Part shown: positions 1-8,338 of the stretch, piece after piece
Numbering within the stretch: the first letter of the stretch is position 1
Layout: the number at the start of each line of letters is the position of its first letter
Source of the DNA: a virus
Lineage: Duplodnaviria > Heunggongvirae > Uroviricota > Caudoviricetes
Direction: 5' to 3' (one strand)
IMG/VR virus record: IMGVR_UViG_2654587792_000032
Coordinates: 1-8,338 of that record
DNA: 8,338 nucleotides
Made by a program: the position numbers and the translations under genes
Notes under the pieces: model-generated
Told to the model about the DNA's origin: nothing
The model's database searches: none
What the model saw: only the letters and a program-made list of their open reading frames with translations

Positions 1-486
1 CACCTTTAGCCAATGCTCAATGCGTCTTTCACAGGTTCTTAAACTCCATTCCGGATGTGCATCATTCAGCAGTTCAGCCATTTTGCGCTTAGTCATCCCC
101 CGCCCCACATAACGCTGACTCAGAACATTGAGCAGCCCGGGATAACCTGCCAGTACTTCACCAATAACCCTGTCGATTATTAACGCCTCTGAATCGGTAC
201 AATGTGCCAGCCAGCTTTTTTGATTGCCGTTGATCATATCCCGCAAAAAAGCCTCAAGTTCAGGTTTGTCCAGACCCGCTTTTTTCATCCTCCGGAGCGC
301 CTCGTTAATTGCCGTTTTTGTCAGCTTTTTAGAGGTCAGTAATTGGTTGAACATATTTCCCGTCTTACCGTCGCCAATATACGACCAACGCCCCCACATA
401 CGCAGTTTCCCCTGGATCCAGACACTTTCCAGCGTTTTCAGGCGTAAATGCTCACCGCTTTTGCCTGTAATTTCCGGGTATATCAT
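1..486 (-). CDS. Phage late-gene antitermination protein Q family; C-terminal end runs off the window (at least 162 codons present)
   Basis: ATG at 486 (rc of cat 484-486). The frame stays open to position 1 (checked by hand for the last 40 codons: ...SQRYVGRGMTKRKMAELLNDAHPEWSLRTCERRIEHWLKV). The N-terminal LRMWGRWSY and C-terminal RYVGRGMTKRKMAELL segments resemble Q antiterminators of the DLP12/82 type as I recall them. It lies 8 nt downstream of rusA, the canonical nin-region order. Not in the ORF track because it is open-ended; the + strand ORF 224-568 is its shadow. Confidence 0.7.
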   Translation of the reverse strand, partial: MIYPEITGKSGEHLRLKTLESVWIQGKLRMWGRWSYIGDGKTGNMFNQLLTSKKLTKTAINEALRRMKKAGLDKPELEAFLRDMINGNQKSWLAHCTDSEALIIDRVIGEVLAGYPGLLNVLSQRYVGRGMTKRKMAELLNDAHPEWSLRTCERRIEHWLKV

Positions 487-494
487 ATTTATGC

Positions 495-860
495 TCACTC
501 ACTTTCAATTTTGTAAATCTTCACGCCCAGCCGCCCACCAGAAACGAGCTGACCGCGCACAATATTGATTTCATCAAACTGCTCGTCGTCTATAAGTAGT
601 CCGGCATGCGTAAGCGCATCCAGTGGTGCCTTCAGGATATTGTCCAGGTCGCGGCGGCGCTTATCCGGTGGCTCTGCAATAATCTTTATCGCCAGCCTTC
701 CGGACAGGTTTAATTTCAGCCACTGCTGGCGAACAATAAGTGCCACATCCCGGCGATAACGCTCACCGGCTTTTGACACAAAATATGTGCTGCCACGACG
801 TCGCCAGTAGGTGTTCACCGTCGGCGGGTAAGGCAAAACAAATTCTATGCGTTCAGTCAT
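495..860 (-). CDS. rusA: Crossover junction endodeoxyribonuclease RusA (Holliday junction resolvase)
   Basis: 121 aa. The PYPPTVNTYWRRRG segment, the DKRRRDLDNILKAPLDALTHAGLLIDDEQ block and the GGRL motif match the RusA family (catalytic Asp cluster). Stop TGA at 495-497. Confidence 0.9.
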   Translation of the reverse strand: MTERIEFVLPYPPTVNTYWRRRGSTYFVSKAGERYRRDVALIVRQQWLKLNLSGRLAIKIIAEPPDKRRRDLDNILKAPLDALTHAGLLIDDEQFDEINIVRGQLVSGGRLGVKIYKIESE

Positions 861-1916
861 TCATGCTTTCCACTTCAGGACACCCGAATTTCTCGCGTGC
901 ATTAAAAAACGAATCAGCAACAACAGCTGGCTGCCGTGTTTTTCTTCAAAATCTTTTACCCCGGCGTGCAGTTCGTTATGACATTTACGGCACAGCGGAA
1001 TAACAAACAAATCATCAGCCTTTGTTCCCATACCTCCCAGGCCATGACCAATGATGTGATGCGGATCATCTGCCTGATTACCGCACGTCATGCATTTCTG
1101 CGTTTTTACCCAGCGCGTGTATACAGGCATCTCTTCCCGTTGTGGTTTCTGGCGCTGGAGATACTGAGCCGGTGACTCCGGATCAACGGCAATGCTGACC
1201 ACCGTCTTTTCCTGTGGCGGGTTTTGCTGGTGGGCGTGAGGCAGCAGCGCAAGATTTTTTGTGCGCTGCTTCAGTATGCTGGTGGCGGTCTGCTCTCCCG
1301 GTACGATGTCGCTTTCGCGGTACACCGAGCGGATTTTTTCCGCACGCAATCCCAGAGAACGACGTAATACTGCCTCCGGCAATACGTCCGCTACCTGATT
1401 GCAGACCGCCCACCAGGATAATTCAGCCAGCGATAACTCCCGCTCCTGTGTACCGTTTATTGCGTGGCGGATGACGTCAATCATCCAGGATGTCAGGTTT
1501 TGTTGAGCAAGTTGCCCGAGTGATTCTGAAGTCTGGTCGCGTAACTGATTATCACAGTGCCAGCACAATACCATTGCGCCGGTACCGTAACGATGTATGA
1601 CGGTTTCACTGTGGTGGTAGTCACCATGAGGCCACTGGCAGGATTTAACATGGCGTAACAGCCAGTCAGACAATGCGCCAGCGCCGCCAGCAGCACGAAT
1701 CACCCGCTCATCGCTGAAAAATGGCAGTAATGATTTATCTTCCGCGAGCGGCTGGCGCACGGCAGGAACAGTTCCTGACGGCAGACCGCGCATGCTTTTC
1801 GGTTCCGGCTCCACCAGCACCCGGGGATTATGAAATACCTGCATGGATTCACGGCCCGGCTTAAGGACCACCAGCCCGAGTTCCGGTACCAGAACAGGTC
1901 GAAGTAATACCCGCAC
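861..1916 (-). CDS. ydfU: DUF968 (YdfU-family) lambdoid prophage protein with C-terminal Cys/His HNH-like motif
   Basis: 351 aa with GTG start at 1916. An SD-like GGAGG (rc of 1921-1925) sits inside the 3' end of the upstream ORF. The C-terminus CMTCGNQADDPHHIIGHGLGG...CRKCHNELH is a zinc-finger/HNH-like signature typical of DUF968 proteins. Its stop TGA (861-863) abuts the rusA ATG (858-860), implying translational coupling. Confidence 0.8.
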   Translation of the reverse strand: MRVLLRPVLVPELGLVVLKPGRESMQVFHNPRVLVEPEPKSMRGLPSGTVPAVRQPLAEDKSLLPFFSDERVIRAAGGAGALSDWLLRHVKSCQWPHGDYHHSETVIHRYGTGAMVLCWHCDNQLRDQTSESLGQLAQQNLTSWMIDVIRHAINGTQERELSLAELSWWAVCNQVADVLPEAVLRRSLGLRAEKIRSVYRESDIVPGEQTATSILKQRTKNLALLPHAHQQNPPQEKTVVSIAVDPESPAQYLQRQKPQREEMPVYTRWVKTQKCMTCGNQADDPHHIIGHGLGGMGTKADDLFVIPLCRKCHNELHAGVKDFEEKHGSQLLLLIRFLMHARNSGVLKWKA

Positions 1917-1917
1917 G

Positions 1918-2196
1918 TTACCTCCAGATACGCTGCTGGAATGTGCGGGACGGACGCGGTGGGCGTTCAGAGTAAGGCAGTCTGACTGAGATTATCCAGT
2001 GTCGGAAGTCGAAGCTGAGGTCTTTCTGAAACTCGTAACCACGTCTGCGGTAGTTCTGAATTAGCCACTCTGCCTGCTCTTCAGTACATGGATCATGCTG
2101 GAACCAGTCAGATTTGAATGCATGAGAACGCCGCCCGTGCCTGCTGGCAAAGACGGCTGAATTATCAGAATTGTGTTGTCTGGAATTTTGCGCCAT
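1918..2196 (-). CDS. Hypothetical small phage protein (92 aa), nin-region position
   Basis: ATG at 2196 preceded by GGAGA with 6-nt spacing. Stop TAA at 1918-1920 lies 1 nt from the GTG of the DUF968 gene. No family recognised from the sequence; it may correspond to the small ORF found next to ydfU in Qin-like prophages. Confidence 0.5.
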   Translation of the reverse strand: MAQNSRQHNSDNSAVFASRHGRRSHAFKSDWFQHDPCTEEQAEWLIQNYRRRGYEFQKDLSFDFRHWIISVRLPYSERPPRPSRTFQQRIWR

Positions 2197-2262
2197 CGGC
2201 TTTCTCCGGTGGCACAGTGTTACTCAACAGGGGTTCAGCCCTGCGCTGAATTGTAGATGAAT

Positions 2263-2571
2263 TCACTCATCTTCAAAAGCAGAAAAACCAGCCTTAATCC
2301 CAGCTTCTTTCAGAGACGGCAACGATGTGACAAATTCATTTGCACGCAAAATAAAACCATCCGTCACAAGCCCATCCACCAAATGAATTAACGCAGCTCC
2401 ACTCTTCCTTTGTTGAGACTGTAAACATTTAATACGGCAGTGGCTGACAATAGCGCCATTCTCAACGCGCACAGTATAGAGGCCATCCTCACTAAAAATT
2501 TCACGTAATTCTTCGATTTTCATCAACAGAATCCTTCCAGATAAATAGCACTCCCCCTGTTCGGGGTCCAT
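2263..2571 (-). CDS. Hypothetical small protein (102 aa from ATG 2571; 86 aa if the internal ATG at 2523 is used)
   Basis: Open frame with two candidate starts: ATG 2571 (purine-rich AGGGAGAAGAGGG upstream) or ATG 2523 (GGAAGGA about 8 nt upstream). No recognisable domain. It lies between the cassette terminator and the backbone ORFs. Confidence 0.45.
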   Translation of the reverse strand: MDPEQGECYLSGRILLMKIEELREIFSEDGLYTVRVENGAIVSHCRIKCLQSQQRKSGAALIHLVDGLVTDGFILRANEFVTSLPSLKEAGIKAGFSAFEDE

Positions 2572-2606
2572 CCCTCTTCTCCCTGCGCGCTACTTAAGTA
2601 TTTTTG

Positions 2607-2636
2607 ATTCTATTCTGGCACCGTCCAAAACTTCAA
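2607..2636 (-). promoter_or_regulatory. Candidate sigma70 promoter for the 2263-2571 ORF
   Basis: On the minus strand: TTGAAG (rc of 2631-2636), an 18-nt spacer, then TAGAAT (rc of 2607-2612). It sits immediately downstream of the 2645-2676 terminator. Sequence match only. Confidence 0.3.
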
Positions 2637-2644
2637 ACACGTTG

Positions 2645-2676
2645 AAAATAAAAACAAAAAACCCGCCGAAGCGGGT
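2645..2676 (-). terminator. Rho-independent terminator ending the 216-aa/368-aa operon
   Basis: Minus-strand RNA reads ACCCGC-UUCG-GCGGGU (perfect 6-bp GC-rich stem with a UUCG tetraloop) followed by UUUUUUGUUUUUAUUUU. It starts 5 nt after the stop of the 2681-3787 CDS. Confidence 0.8.
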
Positions 2677-2680
2677 ATAC

Positions 2681-3787
2681 TCAAACAATCTGGAAAATAT
2701 TTCTTGGATTTGTAATAGGTCTGTTGATGGAGAACAACTCACGAATTAAATCTTGGCTCAAGCCAGTTTTCATAAGAATTCTTAGCCAGGTTGCATCATC
2801 CAGCATTTCAATCGCCTCGGCCAGCATACCGGGTTCTTCAGGGCGCAAAAGTTCATCACCAGGTTCAACTCTCGTATACCCTCTGGAATTAAGATGCATA
2901 TAGCCAGTTCTTGCCTGTTCCTGGGTCAATAAGCCTAATGCGCTGGCTCGATAAATACACATTTTAAGGCTGATTTTCCATCTAAGTTTAAATTCAACCA
3001 GAGCATTCCAGTCGAATTGCTTACCTCGTATTCGTGGAAATTCTTTAATGAAAGATAACCTGGGAACTAATAAGGCGCTCGAAAAGTGATCGGCTTGTGA
3101 TTCCGTAAGTTTATCACCTGTCGTTATGCCCTCATGCATTACTAAATGCCCTAATTCATGACCTAAATCAGAGCGAAATCTACATATGCTTTTTTTAACA
3201 TTGTTCCTGATGATAACAGGCCTGTTATTGTGAACAGTAAAAGCATCAACACGATCATCGACTCCCGTAACATGCGCAACGATTACCCCTAAACTCTCCG
3301 CCAATTTAACCATTGATGATATAGGGCCAAGACCTAAATTCCAGGCACGGCGACAATCTTCTGCCACTCGCTCAATATCATTCGGAGTAAGTAATTCAGC
3401 CCCTGGGTGCTCCGGTATGTTAACGTCAGGAAATTCGATTTCACCTTCAACAGCAGAAATTATAATATTAAGAATCTCAGCCCTGGCCAATACACTATTA
3501 GTCAGCGTTTGAGTCCTGGACTTCTTACTCCGAAAATGGCAGACATCACTTTCCAGAGCGTATTTTCGTTCAGTAAAAAGAAAACTGGACTTAATCATAA
3601 GCGCTGAAGATATTAACTCAAGACATTGCTCCGATGGCCTGCACCCCTTCTCCAGTTTGCTAACGAATTGCTTTGTCTTGCCAATTTTTTCGGCTAACTC
3701 TTCACAAGAAAGCCCAACAGCCATTCTCGCTAGTTTGAGCTTATCACCCCGATACTCAGTGAAGTTATTCACCTGATGTTCCATCAC
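2681..3787 (-). CDS. XRE-family HTH DNA-binding domain fused to an ImmA/IrrE-type (M78, COG2856-like) zinc metallopeptidase domain
   Basis: 368 aa. The N-terminal KLKLARMAVGLSCEELAEKIGKTKQFVSKLEKG is a typical HTH_3/XRE helix-turn-helix. The HEXXH zinc motif HELGH falls at residues 210-214 (nt 3146-3160, verified by reverse-complement), followed by ESQADHF as a plausible third-ligand region. The start is GTG 3787 or ATG 3784. It overlaps the upstream 216-aa gene by about 20 nt. Confidence 0.85.
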   Translation of the reverse strand: MMEHQVNNFTEYRGDKLKLARMAVGLSCEELAEKIGKTKQFVSKLEKGCRPSEQCLELISSALMIKSSFLFTERKYALESDVCHFRSKKSRTQTLTNSVLARAEILNIIISAVEGEIEFPDVNIPEHPGAELLTPNDIERVAEDCRRAWNLGLGPISSMVKLAESLGVIVAHVTGVDDRVDAFTVHNNRPVIIRNNVKKSICRFRSDLGHELGHLVMHEGITTGDKLTESQADHFSSALLVPRLSFIKEFPRIRGKQFDWNALVEFKLRWKISLKMCIYRASALGLLTQEQARTGYMHLNSRGYTRVEPGDELLRPEEPGMLAEAIEMLDDATWLRILMKTGLSQDLIRELFSINRPITNPRNIFQIV

Positions 3788-4415
3788 TGCTCACATCCAA
3801 ATCTTTATCCTTCGTACGCCGACGAAGAGGCACCTTATTAATCTCCGCTTCGTCAGGGAGTGTGTTATAATCAAGAGGCATAAGCGGCATCGATGCTGTA
3901 GATTGATGAGAAACTATACTAATCTGAGCACCATAAGTATTAAATCCAACAAGAGCCACCTCCCAACGAGGCAGTGTGGACTCTAATTCACCATCGCCCT
4001 CTTCGGATAAAAAAGGCTCAGCTATGACTCGCCATGTAATATCTTGCTCAGCCTCAACATCACCAAACAATGAGAGTTGCTCATACTCTACTTTATTTCG
4101 ACGCAGACGATGTTTCTTTTTGGGGTTATTAATGCAATCTTTGGTAAATTGTAGCGGAACTTTATTTAAAGCAACTACATAGTCCAACCCCTTGGAAATC
4201 ATCTCAAGGCCAGGAATTGCATCTTCATTTTGAATAAGATGATTTCTGACCCAATCATAAGCCCTTACACCTTCAGACCAGTTGCTGTCTAATGCGTGCT
4301 TATGATAGTACAGCTGCTCAAGTACGTTAGCGATCTCCGCCAACAAGTGGCGAACATAGTTTTCAGCAAGATAAGGTTGAAATTCCCAACAAGGAGCTAA
4401 CTGATTTTCATTCAT
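3765..4415 (-). CDS. Hypothetical protein (216 aa), first gene of a two-gene operon with the HTH-peptidase
   Basis: A single upstream ATG at 4415. The long open frame has an acidic C-terminal tail (EEGDGELE...DEAEI...DKDLDVSSDGTSGE) and a basic patch KKKHRLRRNK. No family recognised. Stop TAA at 3765-3767 lies inside the start region of the downstream gene. Confidence 0.6.
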   Translation of the reverse strand: MNENQLAPCWEFQPYLAENYVRHLLAEIANVLEQLYYHKHALDSNWSEGVRAYDWVRNHLIQNEDAIPGLEMISKGLDYVVALNKVPLQFTKDCINNPKKKHRLRRNKVEYEQLSLFGDVEAEQDITWRVIAEPFLSEEGDGELESTLPRWEVALVGFNTYGAQISIVSHQSTASMPLMPLDYNTLPDEAEINKVPLRRRTKDKDLDVSSDGTSGE

Positions 4416-4450
4416 TTCAAGTTTCGCTTTTTTTAGAATTCGTAAACCAC

Positions 4451-4479
4451 ATATTTTCGCATTTTTCTATTTTTGTCAA
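4451..4479 (-). promoter_or_regulatory. Candidate sigma70 promoter for the 216-aa/HTH-peptidase operon
   Basis: On the minus strand: perfect -35 TTGACA (rc of 4474-4479), a 17-nt spacer, then an A/T-rich -10 AAATAT (rc of 4451-4456). It sits about 35 nt upstream of ATG 4415 and directly downstream of the hok terminator. No strong SD before the ATG. Confidence 0.35.
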
Positions 4480-4487
4480 CCAGACTA

Positions 4488-4512
4488 ATGCAAAAACCCG
4501 CCGAAGCGGGTT
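4488..4512 (-). terminator. Rho-independent terminator at the 3' end of the hok mRNA
   Basis: Minus-strand RNA reads AACCCGC-UUCG-GCGGGUU followed by UUUUUG. The 20-nt core AAAAACCCGCCGAAGCGGGT is identical to the terminator at 2656-2676. Confidence 0.7.
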
Positions 4513-4580
4513 AAGTGCGGGTGCGTTGAGGATGCCTGGCACATCAGAGGTGGCGGGAGATTACTCCCCCGCCGGGTCTC

Positions 4581-4736
4581 TTACTCCTCAGGTTCGTAAG
4601 CTGTGAAGACAGCGACCTCCGTCTGGCCGGTTCGGATTCGTACCTCGCAGAGGTCTTTCCTCGTTACCAGTGCCGTCACTATGACGGTTAAACAGATGAC
4701 GATCAGGGCGATTAACATCGCCTTTTGCTGCTTCAT
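4581..4736 (-). CDS. hokD: Hok/Gef-family type I toxin (51 aa small membrane toxin)
   Basis: Translation MKQQKAMLIALIVICLTVIVTALVTRKDLCEVRIRTGQTEVAVFTAYEPEE shows the hallmark Hok hydrophobic helix and the conserved C-E-V/L and Y-E motifs. As far as I recall it matches HokD/RelF of the Qin prophage. The in-frame upstream extension (ORF track 4581-4793, starting MLYTRR...) marks a mok-like upstream reading frame. Confidence 0.85.
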   Translation of the reverse strand: MKQQKAMLIALIVICLTVIVTALVTRKDLCEVRIRTGQTEVAVFTAYEPEE

Positions 4737-4905
4737 AGCCTGCTTCTCCTTGCCTTTCGGCACGTAAGAGGCTAACCTACGTGTGTAGAGCATAGATATG
4801 GCCTCAGATTAATGTTAAGCGTCTTGCCGGACGCGTAATGTTAACTGGGGCTTTTCTCTATCTGCCTTTGGTGTTGATGCCCGAGGCAGATAGCCTCAAG
4901 CACCC
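4737..4905 (-). promoter_or_regulatory. hok mRNA 5' leader with mok-like start region and fold-back (tac/ucb-type) elements
   Basis: The minus-strand leader GCUUGAGGCUAUCUGCCUC...GGCAGAUAG contains a 9-bp inverted repeat (plus 4858-4866 pairing with 4885-4893). The segment UAGCCUCUUACGUGCCGAAAGGCAAGGAGAAGCAGGCUAUG parallels the plasmid R1 hok leader as I recall it. Confidence 0.5.
4786..4866 (+). ncRNA. sok: Sok-like antisense RNA (approximate ends)
   Basis: On the plus strand, opposite the hok leader: candidate promoter -35 TTGCCT (4750-4755), a 17-nt spacer, then -10 TAACCT (4773-4778). This mirrors the R1 sok promoter arrangement from memory. The transcript would be complementary to the mok start region and extend into the 4858-4893 inverted repeat. 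Ends are inferred, not observed. Confidence 0.4.
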
Positions 4906-4911
4906 GCAGCA

Positions 4912-4940
4912 ATTCTACTTAACTACCGTTACCTCGCCAA
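4912..4940 (-). promoter_or_regulatory. Candidate sigma70 promoter of the hok mRNA
   Basis: On the minus strand: -35 TTGGCG (rc of 4935-4940), a 17-nt spacer, then -10 TAGAAT (rc of 4912-4917). The predicted start falls near GGGTGCTTGAGG, consistent with the 5' end of hok-family mRNAs. Confidence 0.5.
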
Positions 4941-5411
4941 TATGAAATCAATCAGAAAGGTGATCCATAAGAACAACAGCAAGACAATAAATTGCCATTA
5001 CAGCAGCAATAGCCAGCGCACATTTGAGAACCAGCACCACAACCTCCTGTATTGGACGTACACCAGTCCTGATAAATATGAGGCTGTCTCGTCAGTGATT
5101 CAATACAACTACTGGGTATAGTTTCTATGATTTTGTTCTGTGGAAATGGAAAACAGCAACCAGTCACCACCAGCACTTCTTTAAACATGCCAAGTCACAC
5201 GCAAGCCAACATTATAGTTCCCTTTGAGCGAGCAGATGAAGCTAGCAAAAATATTGATCACTTAGGATGCATTACTAACGTTGCTATGTGTTAACGAACA
5301 GGGAGTGGGTCATCAGCATAAATATTTATGCAGTAGGTTTCTTTTAGGACTAGATTAATCAAAAACATTTAGATAAAATTATAAAATCAAGAAATTGGTG
5401 GCAATTAATCT

Positions 5412-5441
5412 TTAATTGTGCCAGCTGAATTTCGTTATTAT
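5412..5441 (+). promoter_or_regulatory. Candidate promoter for the membrane-protein/methyltransferase operon
   Basis: -10 TATTAT (5436-5441) lies about 37 nt upstream of ATG 5479. The -35 is weak (TTAATT at 5412-5417, 18-nt spacer). AT-rich context makes this call weak. Confidence 0.25.
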
Positions 5442-5478
5442 AGAAGATTAGCTTTTTTTTGAGTGTTTGGAGAGTAAA

Positions 5479-6174
5479 ATGTTAGAACCACCAAAGAGTT
5501 ATAATGAAATGTTGCCTATGCTCCATAAGGCGACTTTTATTACTACATTTATATTTTACCTATCATTAGTCATTTATGGCTACATGCCATTGGTTGGCAT
5601 TAATGCCAAGTATATCCCCCCCGTTAAAGACTACGAGGAATTTATTAAATGGATATTAACCTTTGGCATACTACCAATTGCATCTTCAGTTTTTTGGTCA
5701 GTAATTAGTGGAGCTTTAGATCTACATAATAATGTAGCAAAAATTATTGGAATAAGGAAGATGTGGGATAGTCATTTAATTATTAAACCATTAGCAAAAA
5801 TTGCAGGCGTTACGAGAAAATTAACTACTGATGAATCTCACAAGGTAATGAGTAAACTGTATTACCCAGAAGTTAAAGAGTTAAAAGACAAACATTACGT
5901 TGAACTTTTCTGGAACAAAGTTTATTACTTTTGGGTTTTCTTTGAACATACAGTAATCGCATTTGTTACTATTTTAATAATAAGTATCGCCAAATTAACA
6001 AATATATTCTCTGTTACTGGCTCTTTAATTAATCTTTGGTTGTGGATTATTTCTCTTGTCGCATTTGACTTCCTTATTTTCATAGCATCAGTTAAACCAA
6101 GAACAGAAAGCCAAGTAAGACAAATACCTGATAGCAAAATAAAAGAATTCTTTAACAATAACAATATTTTTTAA
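5479..6174 (+). CDS. Predicted integral membrane protein with four hydrophobic helices (about 232 aa), uncharacterised
   Basis: ATG 5479 follows an SD-like TGGAGA (5468-5473); the ORF track starts at an upstream in-frame TTG at 5467. Hydrophobic helices lie roughly at residues 21-40, 57-81, 151-175 and 183-205, with a charged loop in between. Sequence is strongly AT-rich with A/T-ending codons. Stop TAA at 6172-6174. Confidence 0.65.
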   Translation: MLEPPKSYNEMLPMLHKATFITTFIFYLSLVIYGYMPLVGINAKYIPPVKDYEEFIKWILTFGILPIASSVFWSVISGALDLHNNVAKIIGIRKMWDSHLIIKPLAKIAGVTRKLTTDESHKVMSKLYYPEVKELKDKHYVELFWNKVYYFWVFFEHTVIAFVTILIISIAKLTNIFSVTGSLINLWLWIISLVAFDFLIFIASVKPRTESQVRQIPDSKIKEFFNNNNIF

Positions 6175-6186
6175 ACGAGGTTGATT

Positions 6187-6840
6187 TTGAATTACAAAAT
6201 AAATGGAATAAACATACGTTCAGAAAATGCAGCGAAACCGCACACTATGCCATCTAACTATCTCTGTAAACAGATTGAAAGCACTAATAAAAATGGCAAT
6301 GCCCTTGATTTTGGATGTGGAAAACTTAGATATTCAGAACAATTAGCAAATAAATTTGAAACTGTGACATTTTTAGATTCCAGAAGACAACTAGAAAGAG
6401 TGCAAATTATCAGAGGTGTACAAACTACGATTCCAGATTACGTGATAAATAACTATAAGAATGCTAATATTGTTTCTTATGAAAATATAGATAAAATAAC
6501 AAATCATTATGATTTCATACTTTGCGCAAACGTGCTTTCCGCAATTCCATGTGAATCCACAATTCACAAAGTCCTCAGTGCGATTAGAGAATTATTAAAG
6601 AGTGATGGTGAAGCACTGATTGTCAATCAATACAAAAGTTCTTATTTCAAGAGGTACGAGAGCGGTATTAAACATTTGCATGGGTATATATACCAAAACT
6701 CTCGCAATGCTTTCTACTATGGTTTATTAGATGTGGATACTGTAAGTAAAATATGCTCAGATAATAATTTAGAAATAATAAAATCATGGAGCAAAGCAGG
6801 TAGTTCATATGTGGTTGTTGGTAAACATATACATATTTAG
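6187..6840 (+). CDS. Small class-I SAM-dependent methyltransferase-like protein (about 217 aa)
   Basis: Rossmann-fold methyltransferase motifs are present: LDFGCGK (motif I, glycine-rich SAM loop), TFLDS (acidic residue at the end of beta-2), YDFILCANVLSAIP (motif II) and LLKSDGEALIV (motif III). The start is probably TTG 6187 (GAGG at 6177-6180, 6-nt spacing) or TTG 6181. It begins 7-13 nt after the stop of the membrane-protein gene. Confidence 0.6.
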   Translation: MNYKINGINIRSENAAKPHTMPSNYLCKQIESTNKNGNALDFGCGKLRYSEQLANKFETVTFLDSRRQLERVQIIRGVQTTIPDYVINNYKNANIVSYENIDKITNHYDFILCANVLSAIPCESTIHKVLSAIRELLKSDGEALIVNQYKSSYFKRYESGIKHLHGYIYQNSRNAFYYGLLDVDTVSKICSDNNLEIIKSWSKAGSSYVVVGKHIHI

Positions 6841-7154
6841 TTTATTTCAACAAATTATTAGAAAGAGTGATTTGCTTGTTAATTATTAGCTCGGCAGTGC
6901 CGGATCAACATGACCCTGCCACTTAGGCCATTGCCGGTTTACCTACTTTTGTAAGGTTCAGCATGAAGTTTTTATATACTCTTCCTAATATCAATAGTGA
7001 TGCTCGCTTATGTTAGCTGCTTCTTGTACATAGTAGCCTTCTCCGACAGTACTGCAATGAGCGGAGAGTAAAAGTCGATAAACAATAAGGAGGTTCACAA
7101 TAAATATTTCTCGGTGAAACTTTCAAAGCATTCTCTGTTTTGCTAAATCGACAA

Positions 7155-8054
7155 TTATAAATCAACAACATTTAGTGTTATATCAATATTATTTAGCCTT
7201 GCAATCTCTGATGAATCACTTGCTATTTTAGCTTTTAATTTATCAATATTAATCATATCTTCATGGCTTATATAAACCATATCACCTTGGTTAACTTTAG
7301 ATTTGTTCACTATGGCTTGAATAACAGACAAATCATCCATTACACCTCTCATAAATTTCACCATGCTTTGATCTTTGAAGTCAGATATCGATTTTGAACG
7401 TTGCTTACGTTGAATTGTTCCTTTTGTAATTACTTCATTAATTTCTTTTAAACCAGTGAGCATATCAGACAGACTGCCTTCGCAACTCATCCGATGTTTT
7501 ATTGCATTGCGATTAATAATATTGAGTATAATTTCGAGTGAATCTTTATCACTCCATGGATGTAATGATGTATAATCATGATGGCGTCGAATGGCGTCAA
7601 TCATATCCTGGACCATATCTTCATCTGCTTTATCGCAAAGTTCATTCACGAAATAGCTGGGGTCGATTATTTTACAATAACTTGGAGTTAGGTATCTTGA
7701 GGCTTTACAAAAAACAAAAATATATAAAGTAGAGTATTTATCTTTCAGACTCTCTCCTATTTCATTTATTTTCTCAAAAGATTCGATAGTTTTTTTAATT
7801 TTTGCTGGACTTGCATTCGTAGTAACTTGAACTGCTATCATGTTTTTATTATCAGCTAAATCAATGGCGGGAAAATTAACTTTAATCTGATTCATGTTTA
7901 CCAGTTCACCCATTTTCAGCGCGCGAAACATAAAGATGGTCAATGACTCAATTATTCTTTCCATGTCATGAAAGCCTGCCTGTTTGCGTTGCGCGATATA
8001 AAGCTGGAGTAGTGCAATATCACTCTGTAAGTTTCTAATAAGTGGATCAATCAT
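7155..8054 (-). CDS. Hypothetical protein (299 aa), AT-rich orphan, convergent to the methyltransferase operon
   Basis: ATG 8054 is preceded by AAGGA with 9-nt spacing. A continuous 900-nt open frame in AT-rich DNA, with a Lys/Asp/Ile/Asn-rich composition. No family confidently recognised. Confidence 0.6.
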   Translation of the reverse strand: MIDPLIRNLQSDIALLQLYIAQRKQAGFHDMERIIESLTIFMFRALKMGELVNMNQIKVNFPAIDLADNKNMIAVQVTTNASPAKIKKTIESFEKINEIGESLKDKYSTLYIFVFCKASRYLTPSYCKIIDPSYFVNELCDKADEDMVQDMIDAIRRHHDYTSLHPWSDKDSLEIILNIINRNAIKHRMSCEGSLSDMLTGLKEINEVITKGTIQRKQRSKSISDFKDQSMVKFMRGVMDDLSVIQAIVNKSKVNQGDMVYISHEDMINIDKLKAKIASDSSEIARLNNIDITLNVVDL

Positions 8055-8338
8055 AGCTAATAATCCTTTTCAATGAAGCTGGAGGTGTGTTTAACTATTA
8101 GTTAAATTTCTATTTTTATAGAAACAAGCTTTACAACTTCATCAAAGTTTCTCAAATCCTAATCCACTTTGCAAATCCACTAACCATGCTGAATGCTTTC
8201 TGTTGTTAAACATATCCGCTGCTGGCACCAAGCAGACAAACACACTAAGGAAGGTGCGAATAAGCGGGGAAATACTTCTCGGCTGACTCAGTCATTTCAT
8301 TTCTTCATGTTTGAGCCGATTTTTTCTCCCGTAAATGC

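Follow-up and report, generated by a model that had tools for sequence, protein, structure and literature searches.

Which system is encoded by the two small, AT-rich genes at positions 5479-6840 of IMG/VR virus record IMGVR_UViG_2654587792_000032, and do the two genes act together? The stretch of DNA analysed here (the window, positions 1 to 8,338 of the record, 8,338 nucleotides in all) was found to belong to an Escherichia coli lambdoid (Qin/Rac-like) prophage. The first gene of the pair (ORF-A) encodes a putative inner-membrane protein with four transmembrane (TM) segments and the second (ORF-B) a methyltransferase-like protein of the class dependent on S-adenosylmethionine (SAM). The pair is probably a Kunado-type two-gene anti-phage operon, in which the methyltransferase is the functional partner of the membrane protein. 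The operon is composed as follows:

5295-5478, plus strand: region upstream of the operon, presumed promoter, 30% GC, with a Shine-Dalgarno sequence GGAG at 5470-5473
5479-6174, plus strand: ORF-A, YmfE/Kunado-family inner-membrane protein of 231 amino acids (aa), assigned by homology, hydropathy and an AlphaFold2 (AF2) model
6175-6186, plus strand: intergenic spacer of 12 nt, with GAGG at 6177-6180 as ribosome-binding site for a TTG start
6187-6840, plus strand: ORF-B, YmfD-family class I SAM-dependent methyltransferase of 217 aa, soluble, assigned by homology, Pfam and an AF2 model

ORF-A starts at ATG 5479, with GGAG five nt 5' of it, and ends at the stop codon TAA 6172-6174; an alternative start at TTG 5467, which would yield 235 aa, is unlikely to be the true one. 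ORF-B extends from TTG 6187 to 6840 and is preceded by GAGG. Its start was placed at TTG 6187 because the N-terminus 'M-x-Y...SENAAKPHT', invariant across the family, requires it. The RefSeq/PGAP model of the same gene (197 aa from ATG 6247; WP_001139852.1; locus L001, 9998-10591) is, by this comparison, truncated and lacks 20 family-conserved residues (region 6187-6249). The short spacer with its GAGG suggests translational coupling of ORF-B to ORF-A. The pair contained 31.4% GC as opposed to 47.3% for positions 1-4800, which represent the prophage backbone. At the base composition of the pair a stop would be expected about every 13 codons, and the chance of encountering open frames of 231 and 217 codons is about 7e-9 and 2e-8, respectively (own estimates).

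A sequence-only reading of the window had already described most of these properties. The separation of 7-13 nt that it gave could be fixed by homology at 12 nt; the four TM segments were recovered both by Kyte-Doolittle hydropathy and by AF2, and the SAM-methyltransferase nature of the second ORF, proposed from its LDFGCGK motif, by Pfam. The cassette was indeed of foreign composition, and the AT-rich block extended past 6840 to the end of the window (5250-8338, 32.9% GC), so that it also holds a SMEK-domain gene. One claim did not survive, namely that the pair matches no nameable architecture.

The first lead came from a single match in the methyltransferase search, which bore the label 'ymfD'. 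ORF-A displayed 60% identity over 230 aa to YmfE of E. coli K-12 (b1138, 234 aa; BLASTP, E 2e-108) and ORF-B displayed 68% identity to YmfD (b1137, 221 aa; E 1e-112), while a YmfE/Kunado family hidden Markov model (HMM) matched ORF-A at E 1e-55. In K-12, ymfE-ymfD adjoins lit at the attL end of prophage e14. The two loci correspond gene for gene, in order and in size (231 vs 234 aa and 217 vs 221 aa); both are AT-rich, prophage-borne and located beside an abortive-infection or toxin locus (lit in e14, hok/sok and RosmerTA in the window). They differ in their slot, which in the window is the nin-side hokD-DUF977 interval of a Qin/Rac-like lambdoid prophage. In the K-12 record the annotated YmfD is longer and abuts ymfE; mapping of its start here gave a 12-nt spacer and a TTG start as well. 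All computable features of the YmfE/YmfD family were encountered in the window, including homology, four TM segments with insert and invariant residues, and an adjacent, co-oriented methyltransferase gene. Judged from sequence comparison, the pair can be regarded as a diverged copy of the e14 ymfE-ymfD operon. It maps to an already named system only in part, through its membrane half, YmfE having been given the name Kunado.

A full-text search retrieved one functional study, a preprint of 11 September 2026 (bioRxiv 10.64898/2026.09.05.749240). Deletion of hns in BW25113 or MG1655 uncovers an immunity encoded by e14, and a Keio screen of e14 genes in the delta-hns background picked out two genes, lit with T4 and ymfE with T5-like phages. 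When cloned in pBR322 with its native promoter, ymfE protects against T5-like phages with differing receptors and leaves adsorption unblocked. The authors report that YmfE is silenced by H-NS, rename it Kunado and propose a superinfection-exclusion protein that stops DNA injection (same preprint). The text of the preprint contains neither 'ymfD' nor 'methyltransferase', and Kunado is treated there as a single gene, whereas the comparative data presented here give a two-gene unit. The only other study found to touch ymfD checked its Keio deletion as a candidate N6-methyladenosine (m6A) methyltransferase of mRNA: growth was normal, and none of four candidates, ymfD among them, was alone responsible for m6A installation (PMC12096079). 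The most likely function of the pair is defence against phages at the membrane, whether through superinfection exclusion or through abortive infection, as the sequence-only reading had proposed.

By analogy with the e14 homologue only, positions 5295-5478 may be an H-NS-silenced control region; operon and upstream region, at 30-31% GC, have a composition that fits H-NS binding. A consensus sigma-70 scan of the upstream region detected no strong promoter on the strand of the pair, and consensus scans for promoters and terminators as well as repeat searches around the operon gave nothing above chance.

Whether the two genes belong together was examined with HMMs built for both families, with which all ORFs of every fetched locus were scored. 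Word-indexed searches yielded 39 clusters of ORF-A relatives and 316 of ORF-B relatives, and a profile of ORF-A relatives recovered 225 family members, nearly all of 220-250 aa, among 1.84 billion representative proteins. Loci seeded with the methyltransferase in species-representative genomes displayed a YmfE-family ORF directly adjacent and on the same strand in 28 out of 28 cases, which were distributed over Gamma- and Alphaproteobacteria, Planctomycetota, Acidobacteriota, Dormibacterota and Gemmatimonadales. Seeded with YmfE, all 27 loci on viral contigs and 31 of the 37 metagenome loci (a distant branch) contained the methyltransferase, the remaining six being cut by the contig end on the relevant side; this amounts to 58 out of 58 informative loci (27 plus 31). 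Homologues looked up individually displayed both genes in ten out of ten cases. The pair spans at least five phylum-level groups, and many of its copies are chromosomal and lie outside prophages.

Of 80 distinct loci, 62 had the YmfE gene first and 18 the methyltransferase gene first. In 77 of the 80, at most 19 nt separated the two genes, with overlap in 23; a spacer of 11-12 nt and a non-ATG (mostly TTG) methyltransferase start were common to most enterobacterial copies. An all-against-all comparison of neighbours within 4 kb of the pair in 29 non-redundant loci revealed no third shared gene. Because both genes were present in every informative locus and no third gene was shared, the functional unit consists of exactly the YmfE and YmfD genes, and their linkage is obligate. 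The sequence-only reading had suggested gene-neighbourhood conservation as a check and had named a housekeeping methyltransferase lacking a co-conserved membrane gene as the finding that would speak against it. The neighbourhood turned out to be conserved throughout, and the methyltransferase is not a housekeeping enzyme that chances to lie beside a YmfE gene.

ORF-A contains four hydrophobic segments (approximately residues 21-41, 59-80, 146-177 and 183-205). Its AF2 model was confident and all-helical (pLDDT 85.8, pTM 0.80), with TM1 at about 8-32, TM2 at about 53-80, an insert at about 82-133, TM3 inside a long helix (138-173), TM4 inside helix 183-214 and a short C-terminal helix. TM2 and TM3 are separated by this helical insert of about 65 residues. 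The insert and the C-terminal tail hold 12 and five lysine and arginine residues, respectively, and loops 38-55 and 171-182 are not rich in them; under the positive-inside rule the N-terminus, the insert and the C-terminus would be cytoplasmic. The cytoplasmic C-terminus is independently supported, as C-terminal TIR fusions exist in the family (see below). Among 33 family sequences, 12-90% identical to ORF-A, residues Y8, H83, R93, Y129, W152 and E156 were invariant, and D97 and D137 nearly so. All conserved residues map to the predicted cytoplasmic face or to the inner half of TM3.

No profile of Pfam, NCBIfam, PHROGs or PADLOC matched ORF-A, and K-12 YmfE had no PADLOC match either. Judged by PADLOC 2.0 and Pfam profiles, ORF-A fell outside the known TM-effector and defence families (SLATT, Abi, and TM effectors of CBASS/Pycsar). 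A scan of 20 distant members gave nothing but DUF2207_C matches below threshold, which were read as noise from membrane composition.

In some copies the ymfE-like gene was split by an insertion of about 1.1-1.3 kb (L077, 3519-5552; L081, 3463-5381). In the E. coli matches H3 and H4 (NZ_CP148483.1 and NZ_CP148498.1) an ISVsa5 transposase is annotated under the match. The methyltransferase ORF was intact in both L077 and L081. Selection against the membrane gene, or its decay, may lie behind this splitting.

ORF-B matched Methyltransf_23 and Methyltransf_12 of Pfam above the gathering score (8e-9). Its AF2 model (pLDDT 89, pTM 0.88), the structure prediction having been run on an alignment without the K-12 sequence, displayed a standard class I fold with two peculiarities, a family-specific N-terminal beta-hairpin and a flexible invariant loop E13-N-A-A-K-P18. 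LDFGCGK occupies residues 40-46. As expected for a class I SAM methyltransferase, the glycine loop of motif I (D41-x-G43-x-G45) is preserved and an acidic residue, D64, follows beta-2. In 35 sequences of the YmfD family the motif I residues D41, G43 and G45 as well as D64, N115 and P121 were invariant and, since the catalytic motifs are maintained in this way, catalysis is under selection.

The substrate could not be read from similarity. No PDB sequence was matched by phmmer; a profile search of the PDB gave weak generic matches, to PKMT2 (4e-4) and TehB (2xva, 6e-3), and a Foldseek search of the PDB gave the generic class I relatives Trm9, DnrK, MfnG, NNMT and NodS. The resemblance to these five and to TehB, UbiG and the Rickettsia PKMT was weak and about equal; no substrate can be assigned, because Trm9, DnrK, MfnG, NNMT and NodS score alike. 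The likeness to NNMT, considered as a link to nicotinamide produced by TIR domains, was set aside as non-specific. A DNA methyltransferase of a restriction-modification system, already dismissed by the sequence-only reading, was rejected here as well: direct reading of the 217 aa revealed neither a DPPY-type motif IV nor a PCQ motif, DNA-methyltransferase families were absent from the matches, and no nuclease is conserved beside the pair.

The YmfE family includes members with an added effector domain. Protein P0279 (395 aa) resembles YmfE in its N-terminal part and carries at its C-terminus a TIR domain (TIR_2, 2e-20), which matched the PADLOC models PDC-S66 (6e-59) and ThsB (1e-35). The same architecture was found in about ten sequence clusters (43-100% identity), some of them from assemblies of Nitrospirales and Terriglobales; ORF-A itself carries no TIR domain. 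At the fusion locus represented by L047 and L048, two versions of one locus, a YmfD-type methyltransferase gene (E 1e-55) ends three nt before the fusion gene. As the methyltransferase still precedes the fusion, TIR is an addition to the two-gene system and does not replace the enzyme. By its domain composition, this sub-clade places the YmfE membrane module in the design space of sensor-plus-effector defence proteins, of which TM-effector/TIR modules (ThsB-like TIR of Thoeris, PDC-S66, Rst_2TM_1TM_TIR) are the closest comparison. These modules lack the methyltransferase, the constant partner of YmfE, and the YmfE TM module matches no PADLOC model.

In the Nitrospirales locus (L047/L048, 1341-3900) the YmfD and YmfE::TIR genes lie directly downstream of NAD-salvage genes, a NAPRTase (with a Macro domain fused in one gene call) and an isochorismatase/nicotinamidase-family gene. 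This neighbourhood may be a coincidence or may be linked to NAD+ consumption by TIR.

Among 5,426 complete E. coli genomes, 153 carried the window allele, in each case chromosomally. The hokD locus, present in 4,767 of the same genomes, forms one edge of a variable cargo slot that reaches to DUF977, a replication-region gene. In related prophages the slot holds AbiH with a hypothetical gene, or a P-loop ATPase of the Sll1717 family; the interval is regarded as a cargo hotspot because its content differs between related prophages. The accessory slot beside hok named by the sequence-only reading was thereby recovered, hokD and sok being identified by Pfam and Rfam.

Elsewhere the pair is likewise located in defence hotspots. 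It was found just after ogr at the ends of P2-like prophages (Enterobacter, Providencia) and in a P4-like element with gop-beta-cII and a reverse transcriptase. The Hachiman genes HamA and HamB (helicase) lie directly beside it in Amphritea (L027, 6837-10307) and Pseudomonas (L034, 356-3825), and a HamB-like fragment does so in a third contig (L002, 1-1833). As the pairs of these three loci are related to one another, Hachiman and YmfE/YmfD may form a recurrent two-system island. Wadjet-like DUF3584 and DUF7281 genes adjoin the pair in Halomonas (L032 for DUF3584), and further copies were encountered beside integrases, recombinases, PIN and EVE genes.

Besides the pair, the P4-like element (L003, 2818-16653) contains the gop-beta-cII module, DUF4225, an Hcp-like gene and genes for a relaxase and a reverse transcriptase of 613 aa, and has the look of a satellite with a densely packed accessory or defence island.

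In the mechanism proposed here the 4-TM protein would be a sensor or gate in the inner membrane, acting at or just after entry of the phage genome, with both termini and the conserved helical insert facing the cytoplasm. Translated from the coupled downstream cistron, which has a weak TTG start in the window, the methyltransferase would be produced at a constant ratio to the membrane protein and would dock on the cytoplasmic face of YmfE. There it may methylate YmfE itself or a molecule arriving at the membrane and in this way tune or complete the response. Because YmfE::TIR fusions exist, we favour a sensor or trigger role of the membrane module rather than that of a plug blocking injection by steric means alone. 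A trigger or abortive-type logic also gains in appeal from the TIR variants and from the occurrence of the family in many phyla and often outside prophages, although the data do not decide between the two. A stronger version, in which Kunado is a two-component system with integral non-DNA methylation by YmfD and with a membrane module that serves as a portable infection sensor able to drive a TIR NADase, is conceivable and rather doubtful at present. The target of YmfD would then be either the YmfE sensor, whose cytoplasmic face would be methylated as a switch for adaptation or arming in the way CheR modifies chemoreceptors, or a phage or host molecule at the site of entry.

Several observations weigh against the two-gene defence operon as proposed. 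The functional evidence consists of one unreviewed preprint on a 60%-identical homologue, not on the window allele. Since this preprint credits defence to 'Kunado (YmfE)' without naming ymfD, and is silent on whether the clone carried it, the methyltransferase may be dispensable for the T5 phenotype. A complex between YmfE and YmfD is something that we infer. The generic fold and profile matches of the methyltransferase (Trm9, DnrK, NNMT, TehB, PKMT) indicate no methyl acceptor, and the structure search with ORF-A gave generic helical matches only, with no informative fold. No homologue of ORF-A was found in a sequenced phage genome (collection of 50,697 records), and some distant copies of the pair lie among housekeeping genes (L014, L030, L051).

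Pure superinfection exclusion, with the membrane protein alone plugging or misdirecting DNA entry at the inner membrane, as put forward in the preprint, and the methyltransferase being an unrelated accessory or having a minor role, would agree with a membrane gene that is prophage-borne like classical superinfection-exclusion genes. T4 Imm/Sp, P22 SieA and HK97 gp15 are the classical membrane proteins of this kind; they are small, encoded by phages or prophages, located in the inner membrane and active after adsorption, as is proposed for YmfE. ORF-A showed no similarity to any of them in sequence or fold, however (Pfam, NCBIfam, PHROGs, PADLOC, structure search); none is known to have an obligate enzyme partner, and the YmfE family is found in many phyla and frequently outside prophages. 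If the methyltransferase were an unrelated accessory, its retention in every informative locus, whichever the gene order and across at least five phylum-level groups, would be difficult to explain. Many copies are chromosomal and lie outside prophages, and the fusion of a TIR NADase to the same membrane module suits signalling or abortive infection better than it does a steric plug. Exclusion by the membrane protein alone is considered unlikely.

A benefit to the lysogen other than defence was regarded as very unlikely. The pair would here be a moron for membrane-associated small-molecule methylation or detoxification, comparable to TehA/TehB or to an enzyme for lipid or quinone modification and its membrane anchor, and would serve metabolism or stress resistance. 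TehA/TehB resembles it in that a membrane protein is co-encoded with a small class I SAM methyltransferase, and TehB is among the best, weak relatives of ORF-B (Pfam 25.8 bits against a cut-off of 20.4; PDB 2xva); weak matches to UbiG and to small-molecule O- and N-methyltransferases, as well as the housekeeping flanks of several distant copies, point in the same direction. NCBIfam equivalog scores were nevertheless all far under threshold, with 30-31 bits for TehB against cut-offs of 218-303, so that ORF-B could not be assigned to TehB; TehA, a SLAC1-type channel with roughly ten TM segments, is unrelated to ORF-A, which matched no transporter or other family. Recurrence of the pair in defence islands and hotspots of mobile genetic elements, its TIR fusions and the phage-resistance phenotype of the e14 homologue are also at odds with such a role. 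Least probable of all is a toxin-antitoxin or addiction module in which a growth-arresting membrane protein is checked by the methyltransferase and the prophage is thereby stabilised. Two small, tightly coupled genes on mobile elements, in the window beside hok/sok and RosmerTA, would suit it, but a stoichiometric antitoxin would have no need of invariant catalytic motifs, both gene orders occur, and the K-12 delta-ymfD Keio strain grows normally (PMC12096079), even though the locus is H-NS-silenced there.

Three results go beyond the literature consulted, namely the two-gene unit, the wide spread of the family and the clade with fused TIR. The pair has been present in the K-12 genome for decades as two y-genes, of which the membrane half has only just been tied to phage defence, and Pfam, NCBIfam, PHROGs and PADLOC 2.0 contain no family model for either protein. 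The two-gene unit with its universal methyltransferase partner, from Proteobacteria to Planctomycetota and Acidobacteriota, and the TIR clade change both the unit of function and the way in which it should be tested. As Keio and ASKA strains are available for both K-12 genes, the role of a non-DNA methyltransferase in membrane-based defence is directly testable. Should methylation be integral to Kunado, this would represent a defence mechanism acting through SAM-dependent methylation of a non-DNA target.

The remaining features of the window are the following:

495-860, minus strand: RusA
861-1916, minus strand: DUF968/HNH gene
between the DUF968/HNH gene and the RosmerTA pair: two small phage ORFs
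2681-3787, minus strand: RmrA of the RosmerTA pair, a helix-turn-helix (HTH) and M78 peptidase protein (PADLOC, 6e-105)
3765-4415, minus strand: RmrT of the RosmerTA pair (PADLOC, 5e-25)
4581-4905, minus strand: hokD toxin ORF with sok antisense RNA (Pfam HOK_GEF, 3e-23)
4731-4905: sok RNA (Rfam RF01794, 114 bits)
7155-8054, minus strand: SMEK-domain gene, 299 aa, convergent with the pair

The RosmerTA genes (2681-4415) were inserted between small nin-region ORFs and hokD; related prophages displayed only rem, or nothing, at this position (L053, L054).

The protein encoded at 7155-8054 carries an N-terminal SMEK domain (Pfam 5e-23, NCBIfam 1e-30) and also matched the N-terminal part of a PADLOC model for an Argonaute-associated nuclease (2e-21), with no Argonaute gene nearby. 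Its gene accompanied the pair in the nearest alleles from enterobacteria, down to 83% protein identity (L069-L072, L074, L079). It was rejected as a general third component, being absent from the e14, P2-like and P4-like copies and from all distant loci, and was for this reason treated as separate linked cargo. The SMEK protein may be a defence candidate in its own right.

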